Shown here one piece after another: positions 42,444 through 52,929 of a stretch of 64,000 bases of DNA (within the stretch, counting starts at the first letter, position 1; each line of letters begins with the position of its first letter). Below the pieces are notes generated by a model, which saw nothing but the letters and a program-made list of their open reading frames with translations, did not search any database and was not told where the DNA came from. The translations under genes were made by a program, and so were the position numbers. This stretch comes from Dehalococcoidia bacterium. GTDB taxonomy: Bacteria; Chloroflexota; Dehalococcoidia; Lucifugimonadales; SHYT01. The stretch covers positions 66,389 through 130,388 of the forward strand of contig SHYT01000003.1 in the NCBI GenBank assembly GCA_009692665.1, in the 5' to 3' direction.

Positions 42444-42812
42444 ATGCCTCAGGAATACGCCATCAATTACGGCGCAGTGGTACTGGCGGCAATCGTAGGG
42501 CTCATGGCAGTGCTTTTCATGTTCCTGACCAACTATTTGTTGGCTCCCCGGCGTTCCTCAGCGATAAAAGGTCTTCCGTTTGAGTGTGGCGTCCCCGCCG
42601 CACCGTTCACCTGGTCACAAATCAACATCCGGTACTACATCTTCGCCATTTTGTTCCTGGTGTTTGACGTTGAGGCGGTGTTCCTATTCCCTTGGGTCAT
42701 CATCTACCTGAAGAGTGCACCCATCGTCTTCTACGAAATGCTCGTGTTCCTCGCCATCCTGCTTTTCGGCCTGCTGTACGGCTGGAAGAAAGGGATGCTT
42801 GAATGGCAGTAA
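42444..42812 (+). CDS. nuoA: NADH-quinone oxidoreductase subunit A
   Basis: [34 protein letters not shown]. Confidence 0.95.
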
Positions 42813-43504
42813 CTGGCAACACTCCTCCAGGGAATTTTGGGCCGGAGAACCCAGGAAAACCGGGACTTCTTCCGGCTGACAAAGCACGCCAGGTCATCTG
42901 GAAGAGCATTGGGCCAAGAACGCCGGCAGAAGAGGGCATTACTGTAGGCACGGGCAATAGGCCTGCCCCCGCGCCCTACCAGAAATACGCGCCTGCAATG
43001 ATCACGACGACCACGCAGAAGCTCTTTGCCATGGCGCGCGCGAACTCGCTGTGGCCGCTGCAGTTCGGGCTGGCGTGCTGCGCCATCGAGATGATTTCCA
43101 CCTACATGGCGCACCACGACCTCGACCGGATTGGCGTCGTCACGTGGCCATCGCCGCGGCAGAGCGACGTGATGATTGTGGCTGGCACGGTGGTCAAGAA
43201 AATGGCGGAACCTATCAGGCTGCTGTACGAGCAAATGCCGGAGCCGAAGTGGGTCATTGCCATGGGCGCGTGCGCGACCAACGGCGGGCCGTATTGGCGG
43301 TCATACTCGGTTGTCATGGGTGTAGACCACATTATCCCGGTCGACATCTACATCCCTGGTTGCCCCCCGCGCCCCGAAGCACTTCTTGACGGCATCTTCA
43401 AACTGCAGGAAAAGATACAACAGGACGCGAAACGCAGTGGTCAGTCAGGAACCGCCCAGGCCGGCGACACCGCCACCCTCGAGGCCCCCCGTCCCAGCGG
43501 CTAG
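42803..43504 (+). CDS. nuoB: NADH-quinone oxidoreductase subunit B
   Basis: [33 protein letters not shown]. Confidence 0.96.
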
Positions 43505-44003
43505 CGCTGGTCATGGGGCCGCCGAGGCTCCCTCAAAATTGAATGCCAAGGGCCTGGCGTTGATGCGCCTGCTGCCTGAAGTCCTCGCTCCTTTTTCACC
43601 ACAGATTGCCGCCAGCTACGACGACGTGGTCATTACGGTGGACAAGAGCAAGCTCGTCCAGATGGCCCGTGTCCTGCGCGACGATAGCCGCCTGAGCTTT
43701 GACCTGATGCGTCTACTCACCGTGGTTGACTACAATGACCACTTCCAAGTCGTGTACCATCTATGGTCGCTGGGCAAGCGGCACCGCACGGTAGTGAAGG
43801 TGGACACGCCCGCCGCTGAGGCTTCAGTCCCGTCCGTCACATCGGTGTGGAGGACGGCAGACTGGTACGAACGCGAGGGCAAAGAGCTGTTCGGCGTGAA
43901 CTTTGAAGGGCATCCCAAGCTAGAGCCGCTCCTGTTGTGGGAGGGCTTTGAGGGATACCCGGGGCGCAGGTCCTACCAGCTCTTCGATTACAAGGAGTTC
44001 TAG
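43437..44003 (+). CDS. nuoC: NADH-quinone oxidoreductase subunit C (start uncertain)
   Basis: [31 protein letters not shown]. Confidence 0.9.
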
Positions 44004-44004
44004 C

Positions 44005-45123
44005 ATGGCGCAATCGCGTCCACTGCAATCGCTGGACATGATGGTGAACATGGGGCCGCAGCACCCCAGCACGCACGGCGTCTTCCGCATGGTGCTGTGG
44101 GTGGACGGCGAGTACATCGTGGAGGCCGAGCCATACATCGGCTACCTGCACCGCGGCACGGAGAAGCTGTGCGAGGGCGAGCTGTACCCGCAAATCATCA
44201 CGCTCTTTGACCGGCTGGACTACCTGGCGAACTTCAACAATGAGTGGACGCTCTGTCTGGCGATGGAAAAGCTGATGAGCGTGCAGGTGCCGGAGCGCGC
44301 CGAGTACATCCGCCTCATCCTCTGTGAGCTGAACCGTATCGCGAGCCACATGCTGTTCTACGGTACGATGGGCCTGGACGCGGGCGCTATGACGCCGGTG
44401 ATGTGGGGTTTCCGCGAGCGCGAGCGCATCCAGCGCCTATTCGAGGCGACGAGCGGCGCGCGCATGATGCACAACTACTTCCGGATCGGCGGCATTAAAG
44501 AGGATGTGCCAGAGGACTGGAAGGCCCGTGTGAGCGGGCTGGCCTCAGAGCTGGAAAAGAGCATCGAAGAGTGCGACAAGCTGCTCACTTATAACGAGGT
44601 GTACCTGGTCCGCTCCGTCAACGTCGGTAAGCTTTCCGCCAAGGAAGCACTGGAGTGGGGCGTAACCGGCCCGTGCCTGCGCGCTTCCGGTATCCCCTAC
44701 GACGTGCGCACGTCTGAACCGTACTCGCTCTACAATCGGTTCCAGTTCGACATCCCGGTGGGCAAGAACGGGGACACGTGGGACCGGTACGCGTTGCGGG
44801 TTGAAGAGATGCGGCAGTCGGTGAAGATCATCAAGCAGGCGCTGGGGCAGATGCCGGATACCGGGCCGTTCATGGCGACCGGCGTGCGGCGCATCCCCAG
44901 ACCGCCCAAAGGCGAGGTGTACCTTGGCACTGAAAACCCACGTGGCGAGTTTGGCGTGTACATAGTGAGCGACGGCGGCGATAAGCCGTACCGCTTGAAG
45001 ATTCGCCCGCCGTCCTTTGTGAATTTGCAGGCGCTGAAGGCCATGCTCCGCAACTCGTACATTGCGGACTCGGTCATGATCCTTGGCTCCCTGGACATTG
45101 TGCTTGGCGAGGTGGACCGTTAA
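44005..45123 (+). CDS. nuoD: NADH-quinone oxidoreductase subunit D
   Basis: NMGPQHPSTHGV, GYLHRGTEK, ELNRIASH, DIVLGEVDR. Confidence 0.96.
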   Translation: MAQSRPLQSLDMMVNMGPQHPSTHGVFRMVLWVDGEYIVEAEPYIGYLHRGTEKLCEGELYPQIITLFDRLDYLANFNNEWTLCLAMEKLMSVQVPERAEYIRLILCELNRIASHMLFYGTMGLDAGAMTPVMWGFRERERIQRLFEATSGARMMHNYFRIGGIKEDVPEDWKARVSGLASELEKSIEECDKLLTYNEVYLVRSVNVGKLSAKEALEWGVTGPCLRASGIPYDVRTSEPYSLYNRFQFDIPVGKNGDTWDRYALRVEEMRQSVKIIKQALGQMPDTGPFMATGVRRIPRPPKGEVYLGTENPRGEFGVYIVSDGGDKPYRLKIRPPSFVNLQALKAMLRNSYIADSVMILGSLDIVLGEVDR

Positions 45124-45233
45124 TGACGTGGTTTGGATGGGTCGCGAGTCTCGGTGGCATCCTGTCAGTTCTCTGCGTGTGCGGCGTCTTGGGCGTGTTC
45201 CTGGCGACCATGAAGGGTGAGCTGGAGCGGTAA
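45123..45233 (+). CDS. 36-aa single-TM microprotein inside the nuo operon
   Basis: MTWFGWVASLGGILSVLCVCGVLGVFLATMKGELER; TAATG stop/start overlaps with nuoD and with nuoH. Confidence 0.75.
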   Translation: MTWFGWVASLGGILSVLCVCGVLGVFLATMKGELER

Positions 45234-46504
45234 TGGACCACTGGTTTGCGGTCGCCGCGTCCATAGGCGGCGTGCTGGCGATAAGCTGCTTCCTGGCCGT
45301 GGGCGGGATGTTCGTGGCCATGATGTTCGGCTGGAAGTTCGCGGTGCTGACCGGGCTGGCGCAAACCGGCGCGGCGCTGGTCACGGCTATTGTGGCGCTG
45401 CTGCTCATCTTTGGCGGATGGCGCATGGTGTTCATCGCCGCGGGCACTGTGGGTCTGTTCGCGTTCCTGTCCGTGGCGGTCCTGGCTATCACGCTCTACG
45501 AACGAAAAGTGCTCGCGCGGTTCCATCAGCGGCTCGGGCCGATGCGTGTGGGGCCGCACGGCATTCTGCAGCCGCTTGCGGACGCCATTAAAATTGTGAC
45601 CAAGGAAGACATCATGCCCGCGTGGACAGACCATGCGGTGTTCTGGTTGGCGCCCATTGCGTTCTTCATCCCCACGTTCCTCATCTGGCTGGTGGTGCCG
45701 TTTGCAGACGGGTGGGTCGTCGCGGACATGGAGCTGGGCCTGCTGTACCTGGTGGCGTTCTCTGTGCTGGCCATTGCGGGACTGTTCATGGCGGGATGGA
45801 GCTCCGCGAACAAGTACAGCATGATAGGCGGCCTGCGGGCGATTGCGCAGCTCATCAGCTATGAGATCCCCATCATCGTGATTGTCATCACGCTGGGCCT
45901 GACCGCCGGGTCGCTGAACATCAGCGCCGTCGTGAACGCGCAGAACACTGCGTGGTACATCCTGACGCAGCCGCTGGCGTTCGCAATCTTCTTCCTGGCG
46001 GGCCTGGCGGAGATCGGCCGGACGCCCTTCGACATCTACCACGCGGAATCGGAAGTCATGGGCGGTCCGTTTCTGGAGTACAGCGGCGCACACTGGGCCA
46101 TCTTCTATCTGGCCGAGTACATTAACACCTTCCTGCTAGGCGTGTTCGTCACGCTGCTGTTCCTTGGCGGCTGGCTCGGGCCAGTGCTGCCCGCCATCTT
46201 ATGGTTCTTCATCAAGGTGTTCGCGGTCATTGCGGTGATGTTCTGGTTCCGCGGCACGTTCCCGCGCTTCCGCATTGACCAACTGATGTCGCTGGGGTGG
46301 AAGTTCCTGATTCCACTGGCCTTCGTGAACTTCATCGTCACGGCTGTGGTAGCCTTCTACGGGCTGCCCGCGTATGTGTTGGCAATTATCGAACTGGCGG
46401 CACTGGTGGGGATCGCAGTCCTGGTGCAGTCGAAGCTGACTTCACCGAGCCGGCGGCCGACGCTGCGGCTCATATCTGCGAGGGAGTTGCGTGATGCTCA
46501 ATAG
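45233..46504 (+). CDS. nuoH: NADH-quinone oxidoreductase subunit H with N-terminal extra TM helices
   Basis: ERK..R..QRLGP, QPLADAIK, AQLISYE, AEIGRTPFD..AESE, PRFRIDQL. Confidence 0.95.
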   Translation: MDHWFAVAASIGGVLAISCFLAVGGMFVAMMFGWKFAVLTGLAQTGAALVTAIVALLLIFGGWRMVFIAAGTVGLFAFLSVAVLAITLYERKVLARFHQRLGPMRVGPHGILQPLADAIKIVTKEDIMPAWTDHAVFWLAPIAFFIPTFLIWLVVPFADGWVVADMELGLLYLVAFSVLAIAGLFMAGWSSANKYSMIGGLRAIAQLISYEIPIIVIVITLGLTAGSLNISAVVNAQNTAWYILTQPLAFAIFFLAGLAEIGRTPFDIYHAESEVMGGPFLEYSGAHWAIFYLAEYINTFLLGVFVTLLFLGGWLGPVLPAILWFFIKVFAVIAVMFWFRGTFPRFRIDQLMSLGWKFLIPLAFVNFIVTAVVAFYGLPAYVLAIIELAALVGIAVLVQSKLTSPSRRPTLRLISARELRDAQ

Positions 46505-47066
46505 CTTGAAGGGCCTTTTGCTGACGCTCCGAATCGCGCCGCGCAAGCCGGTGACAGCGGAGTACCCGAAGAAGCATCTGCCTATCCAGGACAGCTACAT
46601 GGGCTTTCCTGTGCTGACCTGGGATAGCAGGATTGGCGAGCCGTACTGCACGGGGTGCATGGTGTGCGTCCGGATGTGCCCCACGAACTGCATGAGCGCA
46701 CTCATGAAGGACAACCCGCTGAATAAGGAAGGGAAGAGCCCTCGCAAGAAGATTATCGAAGCGTTCGAGATCAACTACGGCCGGTGCATCCTGTGCGGCA
46801 TCTGCGAAGAGGTGTGCGCCTTTGACGCCATCACGATGAGCCACCAGCATGAGCTGGGTTCCATGGCGCGCAACGGCCGCCGCGTGGATTTGCCTCGCCT
46901 GCTGGAGCTTGGCAAGCTGTACCAGGACGAGTCCGGCTGGCGTCCGCCAACGGAGATAGAGAAGGAGAAGCAAGCTGCGCTCAAAACAGTCCAGGCGAGC
47001 GCCGCCGCAGGCGCCATTCCGCCGCCCGTCGTGCAGCCGACGAGCCCGCCGCAGGCAGGCCCATAG
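46494..47066 (+). CDS. nuoI: NADH-quinone oxidoreductase subunit I
   Basis: CTGCMVCVRMCP and CILCGICEEVC 4Fe-4S motifs. Confidence 0.93.
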   Translation: MLNSLKGLLLTLRIAPRKPVTAEYPKKHLPIQDSYMGFPVLTWDSRIGEPYCTGCMVCVRMCPTNCMSALMKDNPLNKEGKSPRKKIIEAFEINYGRCILCGICEEVCAFDAITMSHQHELGSMARNGRRVDLPRLLELGKLYQDESGWRPPTEIEKEKQAALKTVQASAAAGAIPPPVVQPTSPPQAGP

Positions 47067-47591
47067 GTGGGAAGTCTTATCGCCTACAGCTTCCTGGCAG
47101 CCCTGATTGTGGGCGGCGCGCTCGGTGTGGTGACCAGCCGCAATGTGGCCCATGCCGCGCTGTTCCTGCTCACGACGCTCGCGGCCGTGGCGGGCATCTT
47201 CATCCTGTCGCTGGCCGAGTTTCTGGCACTGGTGCAGGTGCTCATCTACGGCGGCGCCATCACCATCGTGCTGCTGTTCGCGTTGATGCTCACCCGCCTG
47301 GAAGAGTTCTCCAACGTAAGAGACAACACGCAGTGGCCGATGGCGATTATCGCATCGGTGGCACTGCTGGTCGTGCTGGTCGGCGCCATCTTCGCCTCGC
47401 GACCATCCGGCGCCGCGCTGCGCGGGGCGTCGTTTCAGGAAGTCGGCACTCAATTGTTCACGAAGTGGGCGGTGCCGTTTGAGGTCGCGTCCCTTGTCCT
47501 GCTGGTCGCGCTTGTGGGCGCGTTCCTGCTAGCCCGCGGCGGCGGCAACCCCGGCGACGACGGCATACGTGACGGAGGGAATCGCTCATGA
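47067..47591 (+). CDS. nuoJ: NADH-quinone oxidoreductase subunit J
   Basis: AEFLALVQVLIYGGAI, PFEVASLVLLVALVGA. Confidence 0.93.
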   Translation: MGSLIAYSFLAALIVGGALGVVTSRNVAHAALFLLTTLAAVAGIFILSLAEFLALVQVLIYGGAITIVLLFALMLTRLEEFSNVRDNTQWPMAIIASVALLVVLVGAIFASRPSGAALRGASFQEVGTQLFTKWAVPFEVASLVLLVALVGAFLLARGGGNPGDDGIRDGGNRS

Positions 47592-47893
47592 CGCTGCTGC
47601 ACACGGAGCTCCTTAGCGCAGTCCTCTTCGTCATTGGCCTGTACGGTGTGCTGGCGCGTCGCAACGCAGTGCTGGTGCTCATGTCGGTAGAGCTGATGCT
47701 GAACGCGGTGAACATTAACCTGATCGGATATGCCGCGTTCACCGACCCGGGCCGGGTGCTTGGCCAAGTGCTCGCCATCTTCGTCATCACGGTGGCCGCC
47801 GCGGAAGTGGGTCTCGCGTTGGCGATCATCCTGAGGCTCTATCGCAATCGGGGCACCGTAAACCTGAACGAAATCAACCTAATGAAATGGTAG
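47588..47893 (+). CDS. nuoK: NADH-quinone oxidoreductase subunit K
   Basis: RRNAVLVLMSVELMLNAVN, VAAAEVGLALAI. Confidence 0.95.
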   Translation: MTLLHTELLSAVLFVIGLYGVLARRNAVLVLMSVELMLNAVNINLIGYAAFTDPGRVLGQVLAIFVITVAAAEVGLALAIILRLYRNRGTVNLNEINLMKW

Positions 47894-48004
47894 GCGCTCA
47901 TGCGCGCGCGGCTGTGGGAACATCGTCCATTCGGGTGCATATGAGGCGTCTCAGTGAAGTGAAATAGCTCGAATACGACAAGGCAATCGGTGGGGGGGTG
48001 AGGT

Positions 48005-48031
48005 GGTCAGTCTGAGGGGACTGGCCTTTTT
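48005..48031 (+). terminator. Terminator-like hairpin between nuoK and nuoL
   Basis: GGTCAGTC-tgaggg-GACTGGCC followed by T5. Confidence 0.4.
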
Positions 48032-48059
48032 ACGGACTACATGGTAGCGAGGAACACTG

Positions 48060-49943
48060 GTGTTAGGGATGGAACAGGCCTGGCTGCAGCCCGCGATCTG
48101 CGCGGTGGCGTTTGTGGTGATCGCCCTGCCGGGTCGCGTGCTGCCGCGCAGCGGCGCGTGGCTGGGGCCGCTCGCTATCCTCTCCGCGTTCGTCATCTTC
48201 TGGTTCGTGCTAAGTGACCTGCTGAAGAACGGCCCCGCGACGTTTAGCTTCACGTGGCTTGAGGCCGGTGACGTCCGGATCATGTGGGGCATGATTCTGG
48301 ATAACCTCTCGGTGTCGATGCTCGGCCTGGTGAGCTTTGTAGCCCTTGGCGTGCAGGTCTACTCATGGGCGTACATGTCGGGCGAGCCGCGGTTTGGCTG
48401 GTATTTCGCTGTCCATTCGCTCTTTGCCGCGTCCATGATGGTGCTGGTTCTGGCGGACAACCTGCTGTTCATGTACATCGCGTGGGAGCTGGTCGGGCTT
48501 TGCTCCTACCTGCTGATTGGCTTCTACTACGAGCGCCGCTCCGCTGCCGAGGCGGCGAAGAAGGCATTCGTCACGACCCGCATCGGCGACGTGGGGATGC
48601 TCATCGGCATCCTTTTGCTTTATAAGACAGTGGGTACGTTCGACATTTCTGGAATCATCCATGCCGCCCAACACGTTGGCGAGCCGGGTAATCCCCTTTC
48701 CTCGGTAATGCTAACGGTCTCCATGCTCCTCATCTTTGCGGGCGCGGTGGGCAAGTCGGCCCAGTTCCCGCTGCACGTCTGGCTGCCGGACGCCATGGAA
48801 GGCCCCACGCCGGTCAGCGCCCTCATCCACGCAGCGACGATGGTGGTGGCGGGCGTGTACTTGGTGGCGCGCATGTTCCCCGCCTTTGAGATGGCCCCCA
48901 CCGCGATGACCGTGGTGGCAGTTATCGGGCTGATTACGGCGCTGCTTATGAGCTTCTTGGCCGTTGTCATGACGGACATCAAACGTGTGCTCGCCTACTC
49001 GACGGTGAGTCACCTGGGCTTCATGATGCTGGCACTTGGCTCGTTTGGAGTGGGCGCGGCCATCTTCCACCTGTTCACACACGCCTTCGCCAAGGCGATG
49101 CTCTTCTTGAGCGCGGGCAGCGTCTCGCACGGCGTGCACGGCAAGCTGGACATGCGCGAGATGGGCGGGCTGCGCTCCAAGATGCCGGTTACGTTCGCGT
49201 GCATGGCCATCGGCGCACTGTCGCTGGCGGGGCTGTTCCCGCTGAGCGGCTTCTTCAGCAAGGACGCCGTTCTTGGCACAGTCTTGGCTGGGCGCGGGCC
49301 GGTGTTCTTTATTCTCACATTGGTTGCAGCGTTCTTCAGCGCGTTCTACATGGCCCGCCTGGTGCTGGTGGTGTTCACCGGTCAGCCGCGCAGCCACGAG
49401 GCCGAGCACGCGCACGAGTCGCCGGTGCTGATGTTGATTCCGTTGGTTGCGTTAGCGCTGCTGACTATTGGCGCGACCGTCCTGGCCTTCCCAATCGCGG
49501 GCCACGCGAACTTTGGCCAGTTTATTTATCCGGCAGGTGAGGCCGAGCACTTCCAGTTGTGGCTTGCGGGCCTGTCCACGGTGACGGCCGGCGCCGGCCT
49601 GCTGATGGGCTGGCTCATCTACGGCACGCACGCCATCTCGCCGTCCTTCTTCCGTGACCGGTTCCCGGCCGTCCAACGCGTTCTGGAGCACAAGTACTAC
49701 ATCGACGACTTTTACCAGTGGGTCATCGACCACATCGTGCTCGGCGTCGGCGGCTTCGTGGCCCTCTTCGACCGGATCGTCATCAACGACGTGGGCATAA
49801 ACGGGCCGGGCAGGTCGGTCGTTCAGACCGGGAACAAGCTGCGGTTGCACGTGACCGGACAGCTTCCGAACTACGCGATGGTCATGGTGTTGGGCGCCAT
49901 TGTTATCGGCGTTATCTGGTGGCTCTTCGCGGTCAGGGCCTAG
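48060..49943 (+). CDS. nuoL: NADH-quinone oxidoreductase subunit L
   Basis: WELVGLCSYLLIGF, GKSAQFPLHVWLPDAMEGPTPVSALIHAATMV. Confidence 0.96.
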   Translation: MLGMEQAWLQPAICAVAFVVIALPGRVLPRSGAWLGPLAILSAFVIFWFVLSDLLKNGPATFSFTWLEAGDVRIMWGMILDNLSVSMLGLVSFVALGVQVYSWAYMSGEPRFGWYFAVHSLFAASMMVLVLADNLLFMYIAWELVGLCSYLLIGFYYERRSAAEAAKKAFVTTRIGDVGMLIGILLLYKTVGTFDISGIIHAAQHVGEPGNPLSSVMLTVSMLLIFAGAVGKSAQFPLHVWLPDAMEGPTPVSALIHAATMVVAGVYLVARMFPAFEMAPTAMTVVAVIGLITALLMSFLAVVMTDIKRVLAYSTVSHLGFMMLALGSFGVGAAIFHLFTHAFAKAMLFLSAGSVSHGVHGKLDMREMGGLRSKMPVTFACMAIGALSLAGLFPLSGFFSKDAVLGTVLAGRGPVFFILTLVAAFFSAFYMARLVLVVFTGQPRSHEAEHAHESPVLMLIPLVALALLTIGATVLAFPIAGHANFGQFIYPAGEAEHFQLWLAGLSTVTAGAGLLMGWLIYGTHAISPSFFRDRFPAVQRVLEHKYYIDDFYQWVIDHIVLGVGGFVALFDRIVINDVGINGPGRSVVQTGNKLRLHVTGQLPNYAMVMVLGAIVIGVIWWLFAVRA

Positions 49944-49956
49944 GTCAAGAGGATAG

Positions 49957-51468
49957 ATGGAAACGCTCGGCGAATACATCCTGCTCATTCTGACGGCACT
50001 TCCGTTCGTCGGAGCGCTCGCGCTGATCTTGTTCCCGACTAACCGGCCCAAGGCGGTTGCGCCGCTTGTTCTGGTCATCACCAGCATTACTCTGGTGTTG
50101 AGCGTGTATGTCTTCGTTGCCTACGACCGCGTTGCGGGCGGCTACCAGTTCATAGAGCGCTACGAATGGCTCCCGCAGATCGGCGCGTCACTGCACCTTG
50201 GCATCGACGGCATTGCGGCGGCGATGATGCTGCTGAACGGCGTGGTGGCATTCACCGGCACGCTCGTGTCGTGGAAGCTCGTGACCCGTCCCAAGGACTT
50301 TTTCATCTTGTTCCTCCTGCTGGTGTCCGGCGTGTACGGCACCTTCGCCTCGCTGGACCTGCTGTTTTTCTTCTTCTTCTACGAACTCGCCGTGCTGCCC
50401 ATGTACCTGCTCATAGGCGTGTGGGGCAGCACCACCGACTTCAAGACGTTCTTCCGGCCGAAAGAGTACGGCGCGTTGAAGCTGACGCTTATGCTGGTGG
50501 CAGGCAGCGTGCTGGTGTGGATCGCGCTGCTAGCCATGTGGCAGCAGGGCAGCGATTCTATTGGCAGGCTGACGTTCAACTTCTTCGATCTGCGCGAGGT
50601 CGCGTTCCCACCCACATTCCAAAAGATATTCTTCCCGTTCCTGTTTGTAGGCTTTGGCGTGCTGGCGGGTCTCTGGCCTTTCCACACCTGGTCGCCGGAC
50701 GGCCACGTGGCGGCACCGACGTCTGTGAGCATGCTGCACGCGGGCGTGCTGATGAAGCTGGGCGCGTTCGGTATCCTGCGCGTGGGCATGGAGCTGCTGC
50801 CGGAAGGCGCGCGGTCCTGGGGGCCGGTAATGATCGGGCTCGGCTCCGTCAACGTCATCTACGGCGCCGTCTCAGCGTTGGCGCAGAAGGACCTCAAATA
50901 CGTTGTCGGCTACTCCAGCGTCAGCCACATGGGCTACGTCATCATGGGCCTGGGGACGCTCGACCAGATCGGCATAAACGGCGCGGTGATGCAGATGTTC
51001 TCCCATGGCATCATGACCGCTCTCTTTTTCTGCATGGTAGGCGTCATCTACGAGCGCGCGCACCTTCGCGACATCACCGTGCTGGAGGGTCTGTCCAAAC
51101 GGATGGGCTTCGCGGCTGCGTTTCTCACGATTGCCGGTCTGGCGTCGCTTGGCCTGCCCGGACTCAGCGGCTTTGCCGCCGAGCTGGTGGTGTTCATCGG
51201 CATCTTCCGCACGTATCCAATCCTGGGCGTGCTCGCCGTAATTGGCGCAGCGTTGACCGCCGTGTACATCCTACGCCTGCTCGGCAAGGTCTTCTTTGGC
51301 CCTGTGAGCGAGCGCTGGGCGCACCTGACCGACGCTTCGAAGCTGGACATCGCAGCCGCGAGCATTCTGGTGGGCATGCTAGTGTTATGGGGACTCTACC
51401 CGCTTTACATCTACCGCATCATTGACAGTGGTGTGCTGCCCATTGCCAAACGCCTGGTAGGTGGATAA
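49957..51468 (+). CDS. nuoM: NADH-quinone oxidoreductase subunit M
   Basis: FYELAVLPMYLLIG, PFHTWSPDGHVAAPT, YSSVSHMG, LGLPGLSGF. Confidence 0.95.
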   Translation: METLGEYILLILTALPFVGALALILFPTNRPKAVAPLVLVITSITLVLSVYVFVAYDRVAGGYQFIERYEWLPQIGASLHLGIDGIAAAMMLLNGVVAFTGTLVSWKLVTRPKDFFILFLLLVSGVYGTFASLDLLFFFFFYELAVLPMYLLIGVWGSTTDFKTFFRPKEYGALKLTLMLVAGSVLVWIALLAMWQQGSDSIGRLTFNFFDLREVAFPPTFQKIFFPFLFVGFGVLAGLWPFHTWSPDGHVAAPTSVSMLHAGVLMKLGAFGILRVGMELLPEGARSWGPVMIGLGSVNVIYGAVSALAQKDLKYVVGYSSVSHMGYVIMGLGTLDQIGINGAVMQMFSHGIMTALFFCMVGVIYERAHLRDITVLEGLSKRMGFAAAFLTIAGLASLGLPGLSGFAAELVVFIGIFRTYPILGVLAVIGAALTAVYILRLLGKVFFGPVSERWAHLTDASKLDIAAASILVGMLVLWGLYPLYIYRIIDSGVLPIAKRLVGG

Positions 51469-52929
51469 ATGCCAGTGGTAAACCTGTCGCTTCTATTGCC
51501 TGAGTTCCTGGTGGCGGCGCTCGCGTTCGCGGTGTTCGCCGCCGACCTGTTCATGCGGCCCAGGCAGCGGAACGTGCTGTCGGTCGTTTCGGCCGTCGGC
51601 CTCGTCGCCATCGGCGTCTTCACATACTGGTTCCTCCAAGGCAAGAGCGAGAGCCTGTACAACGGCGTCTTGAAGATTGATAACTACAGCCTCTTCTTCA
51701 AAGTCTTTTTTCTAGCGATGGGTGTAATGATCGTCATCGCGTCCGCATCCTTTGTGAAGCAGTACCTCTCGCACCCCGGCGAGTATTACGGCATCCTGCT
51801 CTTTTCCGTGGTGGGCATGATGCTCATGTCCGGCGCGGGTGAACTCCTCACGGCCTACATCTCGCTGGAGTTGCTCAGCTTCAGCCTGTACATCATGGCC
51901 TCATACGCTCGCGATAACCCCAAGTCCAACGAGGCGGGCATCAAGTACGTGCTGCTCGGCGCGCTGTCGTCCGCCATTCTGCTGTACGGCATCAGCATGA
52001 TCTACGGCGCAACGGGGACGACGACGTTCTCCGACATTGCGGCGGCGCTGCGCAATCTTGATGCAGTCAACCCGCGTTTGCTCATCGGCATGGCTCTTGT
52101 GTTGGCGGGACTGGGGTTCAAGCTGGCCGCGGTGCCGTTCCATATGTGGGCACCAGACGTGTACGAAGGCGCGCCGCTGCCAGTGACAGCGTACATCGCC
52201 ATCGGCTCCAAGGTGGCGGCTTTCGCACTCATGCTGCGCCTCTTCGGCGAAGCCTTTCTCCCTGCCATTGACCAGTGGCGCATGCTCGTCGCCATTCTGG
52301 CCGCGCTCACCATGAGCGTCGGTAACCTGGTGGCGCTGGCGCAGACCAACATGAAGCGGTTGCTGGCGTATTCAAGCATCGCGCACGTGGGCTATCTGCT
52401 CATAGGCATTGCGGCCCTCTCGCCAATGGCGTCCACCGGCCTCATGTTCTATCTGGTCGGCTACTCCGCCACCAACATGCTGCTGTTCGCCGCGGTCATC
52501 GCGTTCTACAACAAGGAGCCACGTGACGACATCAGCGCGCTGGCGGGTCTCGCGGACCGCTCTCCCTTCCTAGCTGGAGCCATGGCCGCCGCCCTCTTCT
52601 CGCTGTCCGGCCTGCCATTCTTTGCGGGGTTCATTGTGAAATTCTACCTATTCAGCGCGGCAACACATGAGGGGCTGCTCTGGCTGGCGGGGCTCGCCAT
52701 CTTTAATAGTCTTGTCTCGCTCTACTACTACCTCATGATTATTAAACAGATGTACATCAACCAGTCGCCGGACAAAACGCCTATCCGGGTATCGGGCGGC
52801 ATGGCTGCGCTTGTCATTGCGCTGGTCATCGCCGTATTCGTGATTGGCCTCTATCCCGCCCCATTCGTCGATGTGATTGAAAGTGCCACCCGCACCATCT
52901 TCCCAGCAACGATGATGGCATCCTACTAG
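51469..52929 (+). CDS. nuoN: NADH-quinone oxidoreductase subunit N
   Basis: SNEAGIKY, FKLAAVPFHMWAPDVYEGAP, KRLLAYSSIAH. Confidence 0.96.
   Translation: MPVVNLSLLLPEFLVAALAFAVFAADLFMRPRQRNVLSVVSAVGLVAIGVFTYWFLQGKSESLYNGVLKIDNYSLFFKVFFLAMGVMIVIASASFVKQYLSHPGEYYGILLFSVVGMMLMSGAGELLTAYISLELLSFSLYIMASYARDNPKSNEAGIKYVLLGALSSAILLYGISMIYGATGTTTFSDIAAALRNLDAVNPRLLIGMALVLAGLGFKLAAVPFHMWAPDVYEGAPLPVTAYIAIGSKVAAFALMLRLFGEAFLPAIDQWRMLVAILAALTMSVGNLVALAQTNMKRLLAYSSIAHVGYLLIGIAALSPMASTGLMFYLVGYSATNMLLFAAVIAFYNKEPRDDISALAGLADRSPFLAGAMAAALFSLSGLPFFAGFIVKFYLFSAATHEGLLWLAGLAIFNSLVSLYYYLMIIKQMYINQSPDKTPIRVSGGMAALVIALVIAVFVIGLYPAPFVDVIESATRTIFPATMMASY

Follow-up and report, generated by a model that had tools for sequence, protein, structure and literature searches.

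In the complex I operon of a Dehalococcoidia bacterium, a micro open reading frame (micro-ORF) of 36 amino acids (aa) lies between nuoD and nuoH and probably encodes a conserved single-helix microprotein. The operon is part of the window, a 64,000-nucleotide (nt) stretch of contig SHYT01000003.1. The simplest account of the origin of the micro-ORF, as read from the DNA, is a tandem duplication of 110 nt across the nuoD/nuoH junction. Judged by its sequence, the micro-ORF is a chimera, in which a copy of a NuoH helix is followed by the last four to five residues from the NuoD tail. On balance, it is judged somewhat probable that the micro-ORF is translated and kept for its peptide. The chimeric gene has been kept, with an unchanged length and a hydrophobic core, in at least three diverged lineages, and a sister genus has a second structural form. 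A further proposal, put forward tentatively, is that the peptide is a small stabilizing accessory subunit at NuoH.

A coupled micro-ORF fills the gap between nuoD and nuoH

The preliminary description of this DNA held that the nuoD-nuoH gap is filled exactly by a coupled ORF, and this was borne out at positions 45123-45233, where TAATG occurs at both ends. At the upstream end, the final A of the nuoD stop codon (TAA, 45121-45123) is the first base of the micro-ORF ATG, and at the downstream end, the A of the micro-ORF TAA is common with the nuoH ATG at 45233. The same description placed the micro-ORF in a nuoEFG slot, which holds for the position only, as relatives simply have nuoD abutting nuoH. 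The encoded peptide, MTWFGWVASLGGILSVLCVCGVLGVFLATMKGELER, consists of one hydrophobic helix (residues ~3-29) followed by C-terminal KGELER, and its best 19-residue Kyte-Doolittle window scores 2.50, compared with the usual threshold of 1.6. In size (less than about 60 aa, with a single hydrophobic helix) and in location (within the operon), the micro-ORF resembles small accessory subunits, and the location is likewise observed in a related genome, G002, and in two metagenome contigs, L111 and L112. The GC content by codon position, 0.57/0.46/0.78, resembles that of the nuo genes. When the start contexts of all nuo genes were compared, similar purine-rich motifs were observed, and the signals of the micro-ORF are comparable (Table 1).

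The peptide is present, in identical form, in a public protein collection as an unnamed gene call. A Pfam search assigned the peptide (P0001) to 0 families, and the NADHdh profile did not match it. The sole row from an NCBIfam profile search is noise (E 0.22), a PDB profile search gave 0 matches, and the best ESM Atlas score, 0.84, is under the lead level of 0.9. No sequence homology to any described small-subunit family was therefore found in Pfam, NCBIfam, PDB or the Atlas. Two short read contigs from relatives that are ~91-92% identical span the micro-ORF/nuoH junction gap-free, and among the variants listed in the read comparison, none lies inside the micro-ORF.

The micro-ORF copies an added NuoH helix

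Aligned without gaps, micro-ORF residues 3-32 and NuoH residues 4-33 are identical at 14 of 30 positions, with a BLOSUM62 sum of 77, which confirms the count given in the preliminary description. When all 2233 ungapped windows of 30 residues in the seven membrane subunits are considered, the next best match is 8/30, and 0 of 20,000 composition-preserving shuffles of the peptide reach 14 against any NuoH window. Because the match lies beyond all shuffles and windows, the similarity is not a by-product of hydrophobic composition. At the DNA level, the two copies (122 and 125 nt) are identical in 75 of 128 alignment columns, and the alignment score of 12 compares with -21.3 +/- 5.2 for shuffles (z ~6), none of which, in 2000, reaches that score. 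The micro-ORF thereby shows the mark of small proteins that arise by partial duplication, a significant resemblance to the N-terminal part of a larger parent protein. Tandem Repeats Finder returned 0 rows at the locus because the copies are too diverged.

The copied part of NuoH belongs to a lineage-specific N-terminal extension. NuoH has hydropathy peaks at residues 5-32, 37-60 and 65-86 ahead of the conserved ERK motif, with K35 and R64 between them. An AlphaFold2 model of NuoH, built from 37 sequences, has helices at residues 2-32, 34-61 and 63-101, with a predicted local distance difference test score (pLDDT) of 67-79 over the extension. Based on the three hydropathy peaks and the model helices, the micro-ORF copies the first of two extra helices and not canonical transmembrane helix 1 (TM1). 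The earlier claim of a copy of the NuoH N-terminus is thus retained for the first extra helix and not for the canonical N-terminus, with Pfam NADHdh starting at residue 73.

To gauge the extension, the distance between the nuoD stop and the codon that aligns with NuoH residue 65 was measured at 30 loci, one in each of 30 genomes of the order. This distance is at most 18 nt, corresponding to no extension, in 18 of the 30 loci, and is larger in 12. The largest distances are 192-426 nt, in G031 and the three genomes of the window family that are in the set (G000, which holds the window, G001 and G002), and 850 nt, in one insertion-bearing genome. A marine group has one extra helix, in a NuoH of 386 aa that starts MILLIPL. 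In a tree of the NuoH core, the rows with one- or two-helix extensions form one 13-row clade with support of 99/96. As a separate observation, a single Dehalococcoidia clade shows a stepwise gain of N-terminal NuoH helices, from none in most of the order to one in the marine group and two in the window family and G031 (loci L002, L004, L005, L031-L037, L107, L111 and L114-L120, and window positions 45233-45427). An origin of the first extra NuoH helix from the second extra helix or from TM1 was considered and is not supported, with the score reached by 751, 191, 2, 46 and 753 of 1000 shuffles in five genomes.

Two further loci differ at this junction. In G021 (L016, 2586-3424), an insertion of ~850 nt parts nuoD from nuoH and holds two small ORFs of 99 and 110 aa. 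The second has a weak PIN-domain match (20.2 bits, compared with the Pfam cut-off of 23.6), and by sequence the two are possibly a toxin-antitoxin-like pair inside the nuo operon. The metagenome contig L113 (1-200), whose NuoH is 67% identical to that of the window, begins within the NuoH extension. Its fused first helix ends VLTMFKFVGSDP, a motif that in G002 sits on the free micro-ORF and not on NuoH.

A 110-nt tandem duplication spans the gene junction

The tail of the micro-ORF, K-G-E-L-E-R-stop, resembles the NuoD tail, L-G-E-V-D-R-stop, and the two have the common DNA pattern ggNgagNtggaNcgNtaatg. Of the 30 loci compared, 29 have a NuoD that ends in GEVDR, and one has GDVDR instead. What had been described as a duplicate of the NuoH N-terminus is therefore a copy with respect to NuoH residues 4-33 and, with a tail from NuoD (GELER compared with GEVDR), a chimera as a whole. 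The proposed old duplication is supported, and its anatomy is that of a junction-spanning tandem duplication of 110 nt (Table 1). The breakpoint of copy 1 can be placed only to within a few bases, near a shared GGC/GGT glycine codon. This glycine codon at both unit ends may represent microhomology at the breakpoint.

A duplication of this kind explains both TAATG overlaps and the ribosome-binding site carried to nuoH. The unit length of 110 nt is 2 mod 3, which equals the nuoD/nuoH frame offset, so a frame opened at the first nuoH ATG continues into copy 2 in register with nuoD and ends on the copied TAA. This TAA is part of a copied TAATG and hence overlaps the true nuoH start, and because the copied nuoD tail carries a purine-rich putative ribosome-binding motif, nuoH would retain a start signal. 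A micro-ORF fused to NuoH was rejected as an alternative layout, as the frames differ and a third helix would be expected to invert the NuoH topology.

Two types of micro-ORF occur in relatives

The preliminary description named absence from relatives as an outcome that would speak against it. A micro-ORF is present in G002, in L111/L112 and as eight distinct peptides, and it is absent from G001, which represents another sister genus. G002 has its own 39-aa ORF that begins on the nuoD stop and is followed by a 78-nt spacer and then nuoH. This ORF is identical to the first 30 residues of G002 NuoH at 22 of 30 positions, and L111 and L112, which are from a sister species of G002, have a G002-like layout. 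The spacer of G002 contains a colinear 14/16 match to nuoD ~55-70 nt before the nuoD stop, a score that is reached by 12 of 1000 shuffles. The G002 unit is thus ~198 nt in length, of which roughly 70-85 nt derive from nuoD and 115-130 nt from nuoH, and its breakpoints are unlike those of the 110-nt unit of the window.

Of 1.84 billion representative proteins searched with a profile, five matched at E<=0.001. Four of these are small, namely P0004, P0006 and P0007 (36 aa) and P0005 (46 aa), and the fifth, a 467-aa cysteine-rich repeat protein with a match that spans 18 positions only, is regarded as unrelated. A word-index search with alignment gave seven proteins among 29 candidates, of which P0009, P0010 and P0011 are new; P0009 is identical to the G002 ORF and P0010 to the L111 ORF. 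The distinct peptides number eight, of which four are window-type, with 36 aa and an E-x-x-R tail, and four are G002-type (the sister type, from a sister genus), with 37-46 aa, a conserved MSWLG...KFVGEDP and free tails. P0006 ends AEVDR and P0007 ends SEVNR, compared with GEVDR in NuoD, and P0005, P0006 and P0007 are each represented by one contig. When the micro-ORF profile was compared with 401 genomes of the order, partial matches (E 0.003-0.009) were found in four genomes other than G000 and G002. Fused forms were not found at E<=1 among proteins of 82-2000 aa, in a weak search that also missed the motif-bearing G002 NuoH.

The identity matrix of these sequences is star-like: the window ORF matches its own NuoH at 13/30 positions, the G002-type ORFs at 8-10/30 and the G002-type NuoH copies at 9-11/30. 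In the NuoH tree, G000, G001 and G002 form an open three-way fork, and the NuoH proteins of G001 and G002 are 78.5% alike, with either 68-69% alike to that of G000. Two scenarios would account for the two ORF types. One is a pair of independent junction-spanning duplications, and the other is one old event followed by an ~88-nt in-frame deletion, loss in G001 and gene conversion in G002.

Constraint on the helix

Sequence comparison gives moderate support for selection on the micro-ORF helix. In the sister-type ortholog pair L003/L111, 8 of 117 nt differ in the micro-ORF, compared with about 20 expected under neutrality from the synonymous background of nuoD and the nuoH core (proportion of synonymous differences, pS, of 0.17-0.19; binomial P 0.0011 to 0.00013). 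Codons 1-33 contain three synonymous and two conservative changes (I>V, F>Y), and the six tail codons contain three non-synonymous changes. Downstream of the ORF, the spacer shows 9 differences in 77 nt and a 1-nt indel that puts the ORF and nuoH in different frames, and the own paralogous helix of NuoH changed more than the micro-ORF, at 16 of 99 nt. The window-type forms share 20-22/36 identity and are all exactly 36 aa in length, with no indels among three 36-aa orthologs, and three of the four have no D, E, K, R, H, N, Q or P in positions 4-29. The earlier claim that the duplicate is kept under protein-level selection is thus supported to a moderate degree by the 8/117 differences, the hydrophobic core and the same-length orthologs, and is tempered by a V22D variant, the absence from G001 and tiny codon counts.

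These data bear on the possibility that the micro-ORF is a duplication scar without function, which would be open because stops are rare in GC-rich DNA and hydrophobic because it has decayed little. This explanation is considered unlikely. When neutral decay of the nuoH copy was simulated, the share of runs that still had a polar-free core was 17% at d=0.1, 3.5% at d=0.2 and <=0.5% at d>=0.35. The third codon positions of the two copies in the window are 13/30 identical, which is near saturation, yet the second positions are 20/30 identical and the core is without a polar residue. The retention of length in the three 36-aa orthologs, and a sister-type ORF that is slower than both neutral sites and the own copy of NuoH, also argue against a scar.

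Several observations weigh against a conserved functional peptide, and the first four of them speak for a scar. Between 79 and 92% of the neutral simulations stay open in the GC-rich context, so an open frame is weak evidence. P0004, a near-identical assembly variant, carries V22D, a mid-helix charge at an otherwise conserved position, explained either by an error of assembly or by relaxed constraint in the strain concerned. The distribution is confined to one family, with strong profile matches in G000 and G002 only among the 401 genomes, and within that family G001 has the NuoH extension and no micro-ORF, with nuoD overlapping nuoH directly by TAATG. The peptide also matches no family, structure or Atlas entry. 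In addition, P0005, P0006, P0007 and P0011 are known as peptides alone and not by genomic context, and the counts behind the ratio of non-synonymous to synonymous changes in L003/L111 are tiny (three synonymous compared with two to five non-synonymous). The nuoH ribosome-binding site, and not the peptide, may be what keeps the E-x-x-R tail conserved. None of the four sequencing runs found to contain the stretch, all freshwater metagenomes from two studies, is an RNA run. Finally, association of the micro-ORF with complex I is plausible on the basis of position, coupling and descent only.

The exact stop/start overlaps at both ends could also be read as a translation relay, in which ribosomes are passed from nuoD to nuoH via the two TAATG overlaps and the peptide is irrelevant and degraded. 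The Shine-Dalgarno-like motif for nuoH within the micro-ORF tail and the invariant E-x-x-R tail and length of the 36-aa type agree with such a relay. This explanation fits the window but not the G002 type, because the G002 ORF ends 78 nt upstream of nuoH; a stop that overlaps the downstream start is observed in the 36-aa type and not in the sister type. Furthermore, the sister-type spacer tolerates the 1-nt indel while the helix part is most conserved, and a relay would not need a polar-free 26-residue core. The peptide does not vary freely in the manner of a leader peptide, as its helix part is conserved and hydrophobic. A relay alone is considered very unlikely.

The complex I operon

The features described here are collected in Table 1. 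Based on Pfam, no nuoE, nuoF or nuoG is present in the operon, and Complex1_51K (NuoF) has no match anywhere in the 1.58-Mb, 91%-complete genome G000. Nuo complexes with 11 subunits and without the N module have been reported for Chloroflexi (PMC5736913). G000 has a single NuoH gene, and many genomes of the order have two. The start of nuoD is probably ATG 44005, with AAGGAG just before it. With mechanical ORF starts (window 43386-44003 and 43948-44005), nuoC and nuoD overlap their upstream genes by 118 and 56 nt, respectively. The gap of 166 nt (47893-48060) from the nuoK stop to the first listed nuoL start (GTG 48060) is unusually long for a tightly packed operon. Antisense ORFs at 44545-45492 and 45074-46093 were rejected as shadow ORFs across nuo genes. 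A scan found 0 promoter-like sites and terminator-like sites at chance level (2, compared with 1.1 in shuffles), and Rfam gave no match at E<=1.

Table 1 Features of the nuoD-nuoH junction and of the surrounding operon in the window.
Feature	Position	Strand	Description
Micro-ORF	45123..45233	+	36 aa; ATG 45123, TAA 45231-45233
Shine-Dalgarno-like GAGGTG	45109..45114	+	8 nt 5' of the micro-ORF ATG; same bases as the E-V codons of the nuoD tail; putative function
Shine-Dalgarno-like GGAG	45224..45227	+	5 nt 5' of the nuoH ATG, within the duplicated nuoD-tail copy; putative function
Duplication unit, copy 1	45109..45218	+	Last four nuoD codons (GAG GTG GAC CGT) + TA + 32 nuoH-type 5' codons
Duplication unit, copy 2	45219..45328	+	Diverged nuoD tail (GAG CTG GAG CGG TA) + first 32 nuoH codons
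NuoH residues 4-33	45242..45331	+	Paralogous partner of micro-ORF residues 3-32; ungapped peptide match
NuoH N-terminal extension	45233..45427	+	Residues 1-65, two extra helices before canonical TM1; hydropathy, AlphaFold2
Complex I operon	42444..52929	+	11 genes, nuoA-B-C-D-(micro-ORF)-H-I-J-K-L-M-N; Pfam match for each ORF
nuoD	44005..45123	+	Pfam Complex1_49kDa; frame open from TTG 43948; ends ...LGEVDR
nuoH	45233..46504	+	423 aa; Pfam NADHdh at residues 73-371, E 1.2e-109

A proposed accessory subunit at NuoH

The preliminary description suggested a supernumerary single-helix subunit or assembly factor of complex I, and such a role is a proposal here as well. The micro-ORF gene begins at the original nuoH start, overlapping the nuoD stop. 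It reads the first extra NuoH helix and, with no change of frame, the tail copied from NuoD (E-x-x-R, stop). In the case of a stabilizing accessory subunit, translation coupled to both nuoD and nuoH would yield roughly one peptide per NuoD and NuoH. The N-terminus of canonical NuoH lies outside in established complex I structures. If the two extra helices are to leave the topology of canonical TM1 unchanged, the copied NuoH helix must also have its N-terminus outside, and the peptide would insert in the same single-pass orientation. Its docking site would be peripheral, on the NuoH heel and next to the two additional helices of NuoH.

CydX, CydH, CioY, CcoQ and KdpF are precedents for small subunits of one helix that are encoded together with their complexes (PMC12648545). 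Their genes, for proteins of 29-58 aa, sit within or next to the operon of the respective complex and frequently escape annotation, as is the case here. Unlike the micro-ORF, to which they have no sequence relation and which is known from sequence alone, these proteins have been shown to co-purify. In the text of that review of small membrane proteins, none is described for NADH dehydrogenase, and the word NADH occurs 0 times. Cyanobacterial NDH-1, with 11 core subunits, has the small subunits NdhP and NdhQ as well as NdhL, which adjoins NdhA, the NuoH homologue (PMC6992706). These are likewise extra membrane subunits on an 11-core-subunit complex I without the NADH module. In contrast to the micro-ORF, to which they bear no sequence relation, they are structurally proven, are described from oxygenic phototrophs only and do not have a known origin as NdhA copies. 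Complex I of Mycobacterium smegmatis has terminal extensions of NuoB/C/H/J, plus a soluble extra subunit (PMC10068793), a lineage-specific elaboration comparable to the gain of one or two N-terminal NuoH helices described above. The NuoH and NuoJ extensions of M. smegmatis are, in contrast, C-terminal, bridge to the peripheral arm and are fused rather than free. A full-text literature search for nuoD and nuoH with a small ORF, covering main texts without supplements, found nothing on such a gene.

The closest precedent for the mode of origin is AcnSP of Synechocystis, which at 44 aa copies the N-terminus of aconitase, binds this enzyme and is described as representative of small proteins from partial gene duplication (PMC11848123). 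Like AcnSP, the micro-ORF is short and independent, with a start and a stop of its own, copies the N-terminus of a larger protein and has a divergent tail at the end of the duplication (here from the nuoD copy), and the parent is the proposed target. AcnSP is, however, soluble, plasmid-encoded, far from acnB and nearly identical to its parent, whereas the micro-ORF encodes a transmembrane helix, lies in tandem within the operon, is 47% identical to its parent and is a chimera with the tail of the upstream gene. This precedent raises the possibility that the peptide is a transient mimic or assembly factor, which would compete for the docking site of the outermost NuoH helix or chaperone NuoH insertion. 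The paralogy of the micro-ORF to a helix of the presumed target, and its production just ahead of NuoH on one mRNA, are compatible with such a role. Nothing in the data sets it apart from the stoichiometric-subunit reading, and the tight 1:1 coupling mildly favors a stoichiometric partner. The locus also lacks regulatory signals, as seen in the promoter, terminator and Rfam searches above. A transient role is considered quite unlikely.

A stronger form of the accessory-subunit proposal is that a supernumerary complex I subunit is observed here near its birth, as a free copy of the outermost helix that carries the tail of its neighbor and a ribosome-binding site. The different breakpoints in sister genera (110-nt and ~198-nt units) suggest that it may have arisen twice independently. 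This form of the proposal is regarded as doubtful.

Significance

Small membrane proteins are routinely left unannotated, and their origins are seldom traceable. The origin of this micro-ORF is readable from the DNA: a single tandem duplication across the junction explains where the micro-ORF starts and stops, the overlap at either end, the helix, the tail and the ribosome-binding site preserved for nuoH. The value of the case is bounded by a distribution as narrow as a single freshwater Dehalococcoidia family, by hosts that are uncultured and by evidence drawn from sequence. Should the peptide reside on complex I, it would have no predecessor in the literature searched as a proposed small accessory subunit of one helix in a non-photosynthetic bacterial complex I, and it would be a natural case of a complex that gains a subunit by copying part of itself. 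If the two ORF types reflect two independent events, they would indicate recurrent selection for an extra helix at the NuoH heel. The micro-ORF would then also provide a concrete route for the first origin of the single-helix accessory subunits around ND1/NdhA.

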